From NCBI GenBank assembly GCA_964016885.1, contig OZ024756.1:16864001-16928000 (forward strand): a DNA stretch of 64,000 nucleotides. The letters are read 5' to 3'. Positions 12,323 through 17,850 of this stretch are shown here, one piece after another. Each line of letters opens with the position of its first letter. Within the stretch, counting starts at the first letter, position 1. The notes below the pieces were generated by a model, which searched no databases, was not told the DNA's origin, and saw only the letters and a list, made by a program, of their open reading frames with translations. Both the position numbers and the translations under genes were made by a program. The DNA is from Eledone cirrhosa (taxonomy: Eukaryota).

Positions 12323-12405
12323 TGTGTGACTTGCTGCTTACTCCCCGAGTAAGCAGCAAGTCACACAGCCACAAAACAAAACCACAAGACAAAACCAAAC
12401 AAACA

Positions 12406-13038
12406 AAAATTGACCGGTTAATACATTTTCATACATCTATATTATTATATATTTGAAAATTGACCGGTTAATACATTTTTCATACATCTATATTATTATA
12501 TATTTGAAAATTGACCGGTTAATACATTTTTCATACATTTATATTATTATATATTTGAAACCACGTGTTTTCGAACTTGTGAGTACATTTTCCTTTAACT
12601 ACAAATTATTATTATATACTTTCGTCTTTTCATTAATTTCAAATAACCAGAATATACATATATATATATATATATACTCATATTTATATATATACGCTTC
12701 TCACTCACACACAAGAAAAACAAAAAACAAAAATAAATTTAAAAAAAATATATATATATTGAAATACTTAACTAAAACACACACACACGAACTTGTGAGT
12801 ACATTTTCCTTTAACTACAAATTATTATTATATACTTTCGTCTTTTCATTAATTTAATTAATTTCAAATAACCAGAATATACATATATATATATATATAT
12901 ACTCATATTTATATATATACGCTTCTCACTCACACACAAGAAAAACAAAAAACAAAAAACAAAAATAAATCAAAAATAAATTTAAAAAAAAAAAAAAATA
13001 TATATATATTGAAATACTTAACTAAAACACACACACAC
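12406..13038 (+). repeat. Tandem duplications in the CR1a 5'UTR (three of about 51 bp; two of about 220-250 bp)
   Basis: AAAATTGACCGGTTAATACATTTT occurs three times; CGAACTTGTGAGTACATTTTCC occurs at about 12572 and 12788. Confidence 0.85.
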
Positions 13039-13049
13039 TCAAAACTAGA

Positions 13050-14210
13050 ATGGCTAACCAGCAAAAATCCAAACAGAACTGGTCTGATAATGAAATCGAC
13101 ATTCTAATAAACACATGGCATTGCCTTTCCCAAACAGAAAATATAGATGCTTCATCTCTGAACGACATTGCTAAACGTACAGTTCAATTTTTGAAAACTC
13201 GATCTGAACAACAGATTCAAAATAAATTAAAGCAAATCGAAATTGCTTTTAAATTAATCAATAAACATTTGGATAAACTACGGTGTGTTTTCTCTTCGAA
13301 TGCTGTCCAGCAGCAGCAACAACAACAACAGCAGCTACAACAGCAACAACAACAACAGCTACAACAACAACATCAACAACAGCTACAACAACAACATCAA
13401 CAACAGCAACAACAACAGTGTGAACCACTCCTTGATTCATCAACAATGGCCGATCTACTAAATGAAACTATTGACCCCCCAGTAGCCTCTGTCTCACAGC
13501 ATGAAACGCCACATCCTTTCTCTGGCCCAGCAGTCCAATCATCACCACTGCCAACATCTCTGCCTACTACTACTACTACTACTACAACATTTTTGTCTAC
13601 TGCTATGTCAAGGAATTTACCTTCTAATACCAGAACAAGAACTCTCCCTCCCACAGTCCACAAAGGTCGTCAAATCCTACCCAAACCATCATCTACACCT
13701 CTCACAACACCCACACCCATATACCCACCCACTCGAAACCCCATCATTTGCCGCTACTCTCTACGCTATAGAATATGTACGGATAGTGGCTGCAAATTCA
13801 CCCATTTACCTAGGACAAAACGATCTATCCCCACAAACAGCCACCACCATAATACATACTCTAATTTAACACCAACACAACCACCAATAACTCAAACAAG
13901 GAATCCACAAATCTGCCGTTTTTCCCTGCGAGACAGATTGTGTTTAGACCGGGATTGTCCCTTTACCCATCTCCCGGGGACCCGTCGGATAAATGAAAAT
14001 AAAATTAAAAATAAAAGCAAAAACAAAAACCATAACCTACATAAAAATAACCACTACCACAGTCACCAACAGTCTTCTAAACAGGAAACTTCTTCCTCTT
14101 TTTTAGCCATAATGAATCTGGCAAAAGAACTGGAAAAAAACATTCGAGCTATCACCCAGCACCACCCTCCACTATCACCCCACTGCACAAACTCCCATTG
14201 CTGCCATTAA
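13050..14210 (+). CDS. LINE ORF1 protein: Myb/SANT-like N-terminus, polyQ/polyT linker, two CCCH zinc fingers
   Basis: 386-aa ATG-initiated ORF; WSDNEIDILINTW...RSEQQIQNKLKQI; CRYSLRYRICTDSGCKFTH and CRFSLRDRLCLDRDCPFTH (C-x8-C-x4-C-x3-H). Confidence 0.85.
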   Translation: MANQQKSKQNWSDNEIDILINTWHCLSQTENIDASSLNDIAKRTVQFLKTRSEQQIQNKLKQIEIAFKLINKHLDKLRCVFSSNAVQQQQQQQQQLQQQQQQQLQQQHQQQLQQQHQQQQQQQCEPLLDSSTMADLLNETIDPPVASVSQHETPHPFSGPAVQSSPLPTSLPTTTTTTTTFLSTAMSRNLPSNTRTRTLPPTVHKGRQILPKPSSTPLTTPTPIYPPTRNPIICRYSLRYRICTDSGCKFTHLPRTKRSIPTNSHHHNTYSNLTPTQPPITQTRNPQICRFSLRDRLCLDRDCPFTHLPGTRRINENKIKNKSKNKNHNLHKNNHYHSHQQSSKQETSSSFLAIMNLAKELEKNIRAITQHHPPLSPHCTNSHCCH

Positions 14211-17200
14211 CAAACAAACAAATTAACAACACACCAAAACAATTAAAACCATCCACTCTCGCCTCTACATTTTTGCTTAACGCCCAAGGCATCAGCCCTT
14301 CCACCAATACTCAAAAATGGAAGATCAAATTCCTGGAGGACTGGATTGATGTCCATCCAAACCACATCCCTTTCTTCGTCCTCACTGAAACCCATCTCAG
14401 TAACCTCCACTTGGAAGCCGAGGTGAAAGTGAAAAATTTCAAAGCCATCCGTGCTGATCGCGCTGGCAGAAGAAAGGGCGGAACTGCCATTTATGTCCAT
14501 AATTCTTTCTCAACAGAGGCTATGAACATATTCACTAATGGATACTGTGAGGCAGTCACTGTATTCAGTCAAACCAACAACCTATTAGTAGTTGGGCTCT
14601 ATAGGCCACCCCAAACGCCTGTACCATGCTTCAAGGAATGCCTCAACAGCATAAAGTGTTTCATCCAAGAGTGTCACCCTGACAACATCTTAATGATGGG
14701 GGACTTCAACCTCCCCGGAGTTGACTGGTCCACAAACACCCTGCCACCAGGTTCTTCTGCCTCTGACAGGGAAGCTGTGGAATCGCTTCTTGACTTCATG
14801 GATGATTTCTTCCTATCCCAACTAGTGCTCGAACCAACGAGGTGCCACAAAAACGTCCTAGACTTAATTTTCAGCAATCACACTGACAATATCCACAATA
14901 TTGCAGTGGAGAAAACTCTACTCTCTGATCATGACATGGTTCTCTGTGATCTGAGATTCCACCGTCCAATATACAAACCCAATGTCATTTCTCCTGTCCA
15001 TCCGTTTGACGCTATGGATTTCCACAATGCAAACTGGGAAGCGATCAGTCATGATCTTGCACATGTCGACTGGTCCTTCACGCACACTCATACACCCACT
15101 AACATCAAAAAGTCCTGGCAGACATTTGTGGACACTGTTACAAACATATGTGCTAAACACACCCCATTAAGAACTATAAACAAATCTAAGAGCAGAATCC
15201 CTAGAAATAGAAAAACGCTCATCAGAAAAATTAAGAGAACGAACAAAAAAATCAACAATCTGAAATACTGTCAGCAGCAACACATCAACTTGACTGCCAT
15301 TTCATCACTAGAGATTAAAAAACATAACCTCCAAAACAACATAATGTCCCTCATCAACAATCAGAGAAGAGCTGAAGAGGCCTGGGCCATTGAGAAGATC
15401 AAACTCAATCCCAAAGTGTTCTTTTCATTTGCAAAAAAACACAAAATCACTGGCTCTACTGTTGGCCCTCTAATTGATGAAAATGGCACTCTTCAAGACA
15501 ATGCTAAAACCATGGGTGAGATACTGCAGAAACAATACTGCTCTGTTTTCAGCAATCCTGATATGGCCGATCTGGGCTGTATCGGCGATGTTACTCCCCA
15601 TTACACCTTATCGGACATAACGTTTGGCGCCCCTGATGTCTTGGCGGCAATAAAGGAAATCAAGCATAATTCAGCAGTAGGTCCCGATAGGTTCCCTGCT
15701 TGTGTCTTGAAGGCGTGTCAACACCAACTTGCTTCTCCTCTTGCCAATCTGTGGCGGAACTCACTGGATGCTGGATATGTGCCAGAAAACCTTCTATCCC
15801 AGTCTGTTGTCCCAGTTTTCAAAAAGGGAAACAAATCCCTTGCCGTGAATTACCGTCCAATCTCACTCACCTCTCATATCATTAAGGTATTTGAGCGAGT
15901 GGTGAGATCGCGAATGACCCACTTCCTTGAGAGTAACAATATGCTGAACTCCAACCAGCATGGATTCCGTAATGGAAGGGATTGCCTGACGCAACTACTG
16001 CATCACTTTGATGACATTTTGAGAGCCTTGGGAGAGGGTTCCAACACTGATGTTATCTACCTTGATTTCAGCAAGGCCTTTGACAGGGTTGATCATAACA
16101 TTCTACTGAGAAAGCTGTCCAATATTGGTGTCACTGGAAAGCTGCTGCAGTGGATCAAGAGCTTCCTGTCAAACAGAACCCAACATGTTGTAGTTGAGGG
16201 AGTCAAATCAAGCCCAGCCAAAGTCAGTAGTGGAGTCCCACAAGGCACTGTGTTGGGCCCACTTCTCTTCATCATCTATATTAATGACATCACTGACATC
16301 ATCAAACACAGCAACATTAAAATTTTCGCTGATGATTCCAAGCTCCAAAAGGTCATCAATGGCGTGGATGACCGGATAAGCCTTCAGTCAGACCTACTGG
16401 CTGTTACCCAATGGGCAGAAAAGAACAACATGTTACTGAACGAAGACAAATTCGAACTGATCCACTTTGGAAAAGAGGATGCTCTGAAACTCCCGTACTC
16501 CCTTCCCTCCGGGGAAACTCTCGTGGCATCTAACAACATCAGAGACTTGGGAGTAACCGTGGACAGCAACATAAGCTGGACCACGCATATAAGCAGCAAA
16601 GTTGACATGGCCCGCAGAATGTGTTCCTGGATCCTCAGAACCTTCCAGTCGAGAGATTCCCGCACCATTATCCTTCTCTTCTCTACTTTCGCCCGACCAC
16701 ACCTTGAATACTGTTGTCCACTGTGGTCTCCCCACACGAAACAAAGTATCATGAAACTTGAAGCTCCTCAAAGGGCAATCACGAAAAAGATAGATGGCAT
16801 GTCAGACCTTGACTACTGGGGTCGATTGGAAAACCTGAAACTTTACTCACTCCAACGTCGCCGTGAGCGTTATATTATCTGCATGATGTGGAAAATGTTC
16901 CATCATCACTGCCCAAATGATGTTGGCATCGCCTTCAAGATACACCCAAGGCTTGGGCCCCGTGCTATCCGTCCCATTCAAAAATCTAAATCGCAACTCA
17001 TAACAACAATACGGCACAATTATTTCACCTCAATCGCCCCTGCTCTCTTCAACATCACACCAGGACACGTCAAAACAGAAACTGACCACACAAAATTCAA
17101 GAAGTCTTTGGACAAATTCCTCCAAGTAATCCCGGACAAACCACCCACACCCGGATATGTCTCCGCAAACAGTAATTCTCTTCTCGAATGGGCCATGGTG

Positions 17201-17212
17201 CCCAAATCCTGA
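14081..17212 (+). CDS. LINE ORF2: apurinic-like endonuclease plus reverse transcriptase (frame open from 14081; ORF track starts at TTG 14198)
   Basis: APE motifs LLNAQG, LTETHL, GGTAIYV, YRPP, GDFN, LDLIF, SDH; RT motifs NYRPISL, QHGFR, LDFSKAFDRV, GVPQGTVLGP, FADD; CR1-like YSLQRRRERY. Confidence 0.95.
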   Translation, partial: TGNFFLFFSHNESGKRTGKKHSSYHPAPPSTITPLHKLPLLPLTNKQINNTPKQLKPSTLASTFLLNAQGISPSTNTQKWKIKFLEDWIDVHPNHIPFFVLTETHLSNLHLEAEVKVKNFKAIRADRAGRRKGGTAIYVHNSFSTEAMNIFTNGYCEAVTVFSQTNNLLVVGLYRPPQTPVPCFKECLNSIKCFIQECHPDNILMMGDFNLPGVDWSTNTLPPGSSASDREAVESLLDFMDDFFLSQLVLEPTRCHKNVLDLIFSNHTDNIHNIAVEKTLLSDHDMVLCDLRFHRPIYKPNVISPVHPFDAMDFHNANWEAISHDLAHVDWSFTHTHTPTNIKKSWQTFVDTVTNICAKHTPLRTINKSKSRIPRNRKTLIRKIKRTNKKINNLKYCQQQHINLTAISSLEIKKHNLQNNIMSLINNQRRAEEAWAIEKIKLNPKVFFSFAKKHKITGSTVGPLIDENGTLQDNAKTMGEILQKQYCSVFSNPDMADLGCIGDVTPHYTLSDITFGAPDVLAAIKEIKHNSAVGPDRFPACVLKACQHQLASPLANLWRNSLDAGYVPENLLSQSVVPVFKKGNKSLAVNYRPISLTSHIIKVFERVVRSRMTHFLESNNMLNSNQHGFRNGRDCLTQLLHHFDDILRALGEGSNTDVIYLDFSKAFDRVDHNILLRKLSNIGVTGKLLQWIKSFLSNRTQHVVVEGVKSSPAKVSSGVPQGTVLGPLLFIIYINDITDIIKHSNIKIFADDSKLQKVINGVDDRISLQSDLLAVTQWAEKNNMLLNEDKFELIHFGKEDALKLPYSLPSGETLVASNNIRDLGVTVDSNISWTTHISSKVDMARRMCSWILRTFQSRDSRTIILLFSTFARPHLEYCCPLWSPHTKQSIMKLEAPQRAITKKIDGMSDLDYWGRLENLKLYSLQRRRERYIICMMWKMFHHHCPNDVGIAFKIHPRLGPRAIRPIQKSKSQLITTIRHNYFTSIAPALFNITPGHVKTETDHTKFKKSLDKFLQVIPDKPPTPGYVSANSNSLLEWAMVPKS

Positions 17213-17850
17213 ATTGAAAGACTTCGCCAGGTGGTGCTATTAAGTTAGACATGGCCTGGGCCAATACTGGCCAAAACATTTCAAAGTTATTCAAAGTTAT
17301 ACATATATTTATATATATACACATATTTATATATATACACATACATATATATATATACATATATATCTATATACATACATATATATACATACATACATAT
17401 ATATATATACATACATATATATATATACATACATATATATATATACATACATATATATATACATACATATATATATACATATATACATACATATATATAT
17501 ATACATACATATATATATATACATACATATATATATATATATACATACATATATATATATACATACATATATATATATACATACATATATATATATACAT
17601 ACATATATATATATACATACATATATATATACATACATATATATATATACATACATATATATATATACATACATATATATATACATATATACATACATAT
17701 CTATATATACATACATATATATATATACATACATATATATATATATACATACATATATATATACATATACATACATATATATATATACATACATACATAT
17801 ATATATATACATACATATATATATATACATACATATATATATATATACAT

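Follow-up and report, generated by a model that had tools for sequence, protein, structure and literature searches.

A conserved -1 overlap and shift site point to ribosomal frameshifting as a likely route to ORF2 in a CR1-clade LINE of Eledone cirrhosa

A 64,000-nucleotide (nt) stretch of the Eledone cirrhosa genome (assembly GCA_964016885.1, contig OZ024756.1, positions 16,864,001 to 16,928,000 of the forward strand; hereafter the window, numbered from its first letter) carries a near full-length copy of a CR1-clade long interspersed nuclear element (LINE) within a TA-type microsatellite (12344..17299, + strand, as for all features below; 5' end approximate). Its second open reading frame (ORF2) overlaps ORF1 in the -1 frame, and we consider -1 ribosomal frameshifting at the heptamer U_UUU_UUA (14099-14105) the likely route by which ORF2 is translated. 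This reading is supported because the site is conserved over 11 other lineages, alternating between two known shift sites. The proposal, first made from the letters of the window alone, is strengthened by a conserved -1 overlap, a swap of shift sites between lineages and a family without a spliced copy, all of which are consistent with ribosomal slippage.

Overlap of ORF1 and ORF2 in the window

ORF1 (13050..14210, 386 amino acids (aa)) extends from an ATG at 13050 to a TAA at 14208-14210, and its frame is open over 13026-14210. The ORF2 frame is shut upstream by a TAA (14078..14080) six codons ahead of the predicted slip site and is open over 14081-17212. As the first-pass annotation had described, the two frames share 130 nt (14081..14210), with ORF2 in the -1 frame. 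Also confirmed were the two heptamers that it had read as shift sites, U_UUU_UUA at the Phe-Leu codons of ORF1 (14099..14105), the predicted -1 shift site, and A_AAA_AAC (14135..14141), a heptamer of the type used by mouse mammary tumour virus and human T-cell leukaemia virus (MMTV/HTLV). Both lie in X_XXY_YYZ phase with ORF1 and are its only canonical in-phase heptamers.

The earliest ATG of the ORF2 frame (14522..14524) lies within the endonuclease, beyond the apurinic/apyrimidinic endonuclease (APE) motifs as claimed, and 81 codons downstream of the Asn of LLNAQG (14279..14281). In a profile alignment of close relatives, this Asn and the Glu of TETHL correspond to Asn14 and Glu43 in the solved structure of the human L1 endonuclease, which we take to be active-site residues. 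No ATG was found near the ORF1 stop (14208-14210) that would permit UAAUG coupling of the SART1 type, and the ATG within the TAATG at 14110-14114 belongs to the ORF1 frame.

Fixation of the junction within the family

The window LINE is young and very abundant, and the layout of its junction is fixed in the family. The 40 best-scored of 1,479 candidate copies were all identical to the window over 13900-14600. Of 50 fetched copies, none of those spanning the heptamers had an indel there; one carried a 4-nt deletion at the ORF1 stop. Counting copies by a pattern across the T-run gave 581, and the register was read in the first 100 listed; 93 of these kept it, three were one base shorter, three one base longer and one two bases longer, so that copies joining the frames were not commoner than the opposite error. 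The first-pass annotation had allowed for a family consensus with both ORFs in one frame, this copy carrying an indel. A copy-specific indel as the origin of the -1 overlap is rejected, since the family copies are mostly in register.

The heptamer was kept in 37 of 45 copies of an older subfamily. A sister family in the same genome has about 69% endonuclease identity; among the 26 copies examined, 17 degraded ones cover both sides of the site and 12 of these have U_UUU_UUA. The second heptamer was absent from all 26 sister-family copies able to hold GAA AAA AAC, 21 of which have GAG or CAG instead. One sister-family copy, L236, has an internal deletion that fuses the second zinc finger of ORF1 to the overlap region, with no splice-site dinucleotides at the join. 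Longer open frames (up to 1475 aa) were considered as ORF fusions and rejected, those fetched being 5'-truncated copies that read into TA repeats. A search of the same genome with a distant protein recovered the same family alone.

Conservation among relatives

A metagenome scan returned 32 loci, 19 of them at 35-50% identity over the start of the endonuclease. Eighteen cover the junction (L053 starts within the overlap), and a 75% cut groups them into 11 lineages. A search of viral contigs gave no relatives. Aligning these related families, as the first-pass annotation had proposed, showed that the -1 overlap of ORF1 with ORF2 is conserved in all 18, and that the Phe codon is UUU in 18/18, where UUU has a background share of 0.20-0.61. 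An ORF1 Phe-Leu follows the opening of the ORF2 frame by 1-37 codons, and this frame remains free of stops for 60-99 codons up to the end of ORF1; upstream of the opening, stops make up about 8-10% of -1-frame codons in most relatives. L069 sets the earliest point of entry into ORF2, since a stop in its ORF2 frame is placed one codon ahead of the site. Eight relatives have U_UUU_UUA as the heptamer, eight have G_GAU_UUU and two have G_UUU_UUA; of these, G_GAU_UUU has been documented as a shift site in viruses (PMC5009743). The residues aligned with Asn14 and Glu43 of L1 are nearly invariant.

A_AAA_AAC was found at the junction of none of the 18 close relatives. Of the two heptamers first proposed as shift sites, the first thus stands and the second does not: A_AAA_AAC is probably incidental, because it is missing in the sister family and has a roughly 50% chance of arising.

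A distant set comprised 93 more loci (L070-L162) of no established clade, 80 of which are LINE-like contigs in prokaryotic genome bins. The endonuclease ORF is intact in 34 of the 93. In fifteen, an upstream frame of 120 codons or more overlaps the endonuclease ORF; the relation is -1 in 12 and the other in four, L162 having both. As a raw count, a canonical heptamer occurs in the overlap of nine of the 12 -1-frame elements: U_UUU_UUA in four, U_UUA_AAC in three (two of one family) and A_AAA_AAC in two. The remaining three comprise two with a heptamer ending in G and one, L105, with none. In all, LINE-type reverse transcriptases are encoded by 383 stretches of prokaryotic genome bins (L083-L162 among them); LINE sequences in such bins are most likely eukaryotic contamination.

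Comparison with chance

Synonymous shuffling of the overlap peptide gave at least one heptamer in the overlap by chance in 48% of cases and two in 0.8%. Given the Ser-Ser-Phe-Leu of ORF1, the chance of U_UUU_UUA was about 1%; the first heptamer exceeds chance and the second does not. Given the amino acids and the codon usage of each element, the chance of a heptamer at the site lay between 0.008 and 0.29 in the individual lineages; one is present in 11 of the 12, the window included in this count of lineages. These figures point to conservation of the heptamer in nucleotides beyond what the amino acids need. The joint chance was about 1e-15.6, an overstated value, as the lineages are related and G_GAU_UUU was included post hoc. 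Restricted to U_UUU_UUA and four distant representatives (the window, L054, L059 and L067), the product was about 5e-7. The chance of the open -1 frame was 0.02-0.24 per lineage, which is partly circular since the overlap was defined as open.

Evidence weighing against frameshifting

Several observations weigh against this reading. The first concerns a 3' stimulator. The first-pass annotation saw no strong downstream structure, and we likewise found none in the window (folding z -1.1 to +0.3). The z values of relatives were mostly -1.6 to +1.6, with one lineage near -2.5. A crude pseudoknot scan placed L069 alone above all 30 shuffles, and 3 of 30 shuffles equalled the window. Neither a 3' stem-loop nor a pseudoknot proved to be conserved between the window and its relatives. 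High-level frameshifting is described as nearly always accompanied by a stimulator, certain stimulators being unstructured (PMC5009743).

The second set concerns the relatives. G_GAU_UUU joined the list of shift sites only after it had been sighted in them, and the four lineages that carry it are mutually 61-72% identical. The heptamer of lineage L058/62 is the non-canonical G_UUU_UUA. The claim that no AUG precedes the APE domain holds for the window and for 15 of 18 relatives, which have no ORF2-frame AUG ahead of the Asn; it fails in L065, L066 and L067, or 2 of 11 lineages (L065/66 and L067), where an AUG lies upstream of it. The four distant elements in which a long upstream ORF uses the other frame belong here too, and an AG directly follows the U-run in 5 of 12 lineages, resembling a splice acceptor.

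The third lies in the family itself, where T14101G, which breaks the heptamer, is common to seven copies (L165, L170, L171, L183, L184, L190 and L191) on several subfamily backgrounds. These copies do not form one clade and share no further private variant, and the two pairs among them are weak (support near 0.75). They look like recurrent dead ends, and their recurrence suggests a mutation hotspot or a limited spread of copies lacking the heptamer; brief spread in trans or through the second heptamer is conceivable.

Alternative routes to ORF2

Re-initiation, or internal non-AUG initiation, in or after the overlap might yield ORF2. Translation of L1 ORF2 can be AUG-independent, and the window has near-cognate CTG/TTG codons in the ORF2 frame before the Asn, at codons 28, 33, 34 and 58 past the site. 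Re-initiation is reported for rat L1 in the title of a cited work, and stop-start coupling for SART1 (PMC3894237). However, no near-cognate start occupies a shared position among lineages, and L054 has none at all. Initiation of this kind would also leave unexplained the openness of the -1 frame back to Phe-Leu, its closure just before and the choice of codons there, and we regard it as unlikely.

Splicing is the serious rival. The pyrimidine run with the AG ending at 14106 would be a 3' splice site, and spliced RNA would link an exon with an upstream AUG to ORF2. The window does have a long pyrimidine tract ending in TAG and two donor-like GTGAGT sites in the 5' untranslated region (UTR), and in 9 of 12 lineages an AG is located no more than 9 nt from the start of the Phe codon, directly behind the U-run in 5 of 12, as noted above. 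Retrotransposition should, by inference, copy spliced RNA, yet no copy differs at position -4 of the acceptor versus 615 that do not, and no spliced copy, an outcome that the first-pass annotation had considered, was found among about 615. Nine copies differ at -6, seven of them point or deletion variants and two 5'-truncated, and in 15 truncated copies that were checked the junctions contained no sequence from further upstream in the element. Where the AG lies, and in which phase, differs among lineages, and the G_GAU_UUU group is purine-rich upstream. The donors in the 5' UTR have no preceding AUG in the stretch examined, while ORF1 has only one weak AG/GT site. Taken against frameshifting, splicing appears quite unlikely as the source of ORF2.

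Slippage of RNA polymerase on the T-run, an extra U uniting both ORFs in one frame, is very improbable. Four of the first 100 listed copies do have a longer T-run, but the run is short (six T, and four in the G_GAU_UUU group), and slipped transcripts would be inherited as in-frame copies, whereas +1 copies (three) are not commoner than -1 copies (three). Hardly credible is that Phe-Leu is kept merely for a helix of ORF1 while translation of ORF2 begins at an AUG further downstream and yields a shortened endonuclease: a Phe-Leu-x-x-Leu-x-x-x-Lys-x-Asp-like pattern is kept in ORF1 and many relatives have a Met four codons past the Asn, but conservation of the protein does not fix synonymous choices, and starting at the first AUG of the ORF2 frame in the window would forfeit 81 codons, among them those for the residues matched to L1 Asn14 and Glu43.

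Proposed translation and comparison with known systems

Under -1 frameshifting, the majority of ribosomes would complete the 386-aa ORF1, and a smaller share would move back by one base on U_UUU_UUA (14099-14105). The shifted product, of about 1,390 aa as we infer it, would join ORF1 residues 1-352 to a low-complexity linker of about 60 residues, and this in turn to the endonuclease and reverse transcriptase. Its level would probably be small, as shift efficiency is probably low because no 3' stimulator is conserved. Such an efficiency is compatible with the very little ORF2 protein that a LINE needs (PMC3894237).

The layout is like that of retroviral gag-pol, with a structural ORF followed by an enzyme ORF that lacks an AUG, lies in the -1 frame and is predicted to be made as a fusion at low ratio. 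The same heptamers, in the same X_XXY_YYZ phase, serve human immunodeficiency virus 1 (HIV-1) gag-pol (U_UUU_UUA) and plant and insect viruses (G_GAU_UUU) (PMC5009743). Unlike retroviral gag-pol, the window holds a non-long-terminal-repeat (non-LTR) element with no protease and no conserved 3' stem-loop or pseudoknot found, and its fusion is predicted only.

Among non-LTR elements, HeT-A and TART are named as frameshift cases in PMC5009743. A review states that the Dictyostelium APE-type elements TRE5-A and TRE3-A require a -1 frameshift for ORF2 (PMC5911963). The host of these elements belongs to a different kingdom from that of the window LINE. Their clade is L1-type, unlike CR1. Earlier proposals of frameshifting, made from overlapping ORFs, are reported to exist for insect LINEs. 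L1 re-initiation and SART1 UAAUG coupling address the same problem of low-level ORF2 from a bicistronic RNA (PMC3894237); in contrast to both, the window has no AUG at or near the ORF1 stop and its ORFs overlap by 130 nt. How LINE ORF2 is translated is treated as an open and important question in the same review, which names coupling, re-initiation and internal ribosome entry sites, not frameshifting, in the part bearing on it (PMC3894237). No paper on CR1 frameshifting was found in a search that had most subscription journals and Repbase Reports outside its reach. Frameshifting is an established form of recoding, and the case thus concerns its likely use in a LINE clade for which no description of it was found.

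It is possible, and we suggest it tentatively, that -1 frameshifting is widespread and perhaps ancestral for CR1-clade ORF2, with lineages swapping U_UUU_UUA, G_GAU_UUU, U_UUA_AAC and A_AAA_AAC, no RNA stimulator, and the reverse transcriptase made as a Gag-Pol-like fusion to ORF1. A conserved 7-nt site makes ORF2 translation testable by a simple reporter in a major animal LINE clade. If the frameshift reading is true, these LINEs share the Gag-Pol strategy of retroviruses, the active site of the endonuclease is lost from annotations in which ORF2 begins at its first AUG, and recoding studies gain a useful natural case of a shift site that works without a stimulator.

Structure and classification of the element

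The 5' UTR (12344..13049) consists of tandem monomers of about 47 bp and about 240 bp, with no ATG in the 620 nt preceding ORF1. Monomer number differs among copies, and every long monomer has a GTGAGT donor-like site. A short stretch of the element's own 5' sequence is duplicated in inverted orientation at the 5' end of this copy (12324-12365), resembling the outcome of twin priming. ORF2 as predicted after the shift (14105..17212) comprises the low-complexity linker, the APE endonuclease and then the reverse transcriptase, an order seen by Pfam and by alignment to the L1 endonuclease; the RVT_1 domain lies at 15827..16558 (Pfam, E 4e-31). The 3' UTR (17213..17299) ends in 10-nt tandem repeats without poly(A).

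CR1-clade elements characteristically end in short tandem repeats instead of poly(A) and leave 5'-truncated copies. Short tandem repeats terminate all 20 fetched 3' ends of the family, and 5'-truncated copies are present. By eye, 94 of 98 reverse-transcriptase residues match O.sinensis_33_LINE, taken from the supplement of PMC10294476, an Octopus sinensis element placed in the Jockey superfamily, CR1 clade (Martelossi et al. 2023, PMC10294476). The word "frameshift" appears nowhere in the main text of PMC10294476, which describes this element with a near-identical reverse transcriptase. On this match to a member of a published tree we assign the window LINE to the CR1 clade, and the CR1 label of the first-pass annotation is retained. 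The Proto2 clade was rejected, five Proto2 reverse-transcriptase references being clearly different by eye.

ORF1 in the window gave weak matches only: a Myb/SANT-like match (13074..13271; E 0.0023, under the Pfam cut-off) and CCCH-type zinc fingers, the first found by pattern, with similar fingers in relatives (13749..13805), and the second a weak zf-C3H1 match (13914..13970). Between the Myb/SANT-like match and the fingers lies a poly-glutamine tract whose length differs among copies (13308..13418). In a comparison of window 13050-14210 with L054, L056, L057, L064, L066, L068 and L069, the CCCH-type fingers stand behind PHD-like fingers in the relatives and behind the weak Myb/SANT match and poly-Gln in the window; PHD matches occur in ORF1 of four of these seven relatives, one exceeding the cut-off. 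A search for ORF1 homologues gave no matches and a protein atlas no usable match. Types described for CR1 ORF1 include RRM, PHD, esterase and CCHC. CR1 ORF1s are very variable, and "CCCH" is absent from the text of the survey of them (PMC4120745). The CCCH ORF1 may be an undescribed type with a swapped N-terminus.

Insertion sites and distribution

A TA-type run, at least a short one, follows all 20 fetched 3' ends (window 17299 onward; L192-L211) and precedes 14 of 15 5'-truncation junctions (L031-L050); by comparison, microsatellite makes up about 15% of the window. The family appears to insert into TA-type microsatellites, which may reflect target-site specificity, a feature unusual for CR1.

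Sequence near-identical to window 13500-15000 occurs in six public runs that hold at least half of the sampled words, under three organism codes, with no RNA run among the public sequencing runs listed for it. Several organism labels are attached to near-identical runs; therefore the LINE family either is shared by related species or has passed from one to another.

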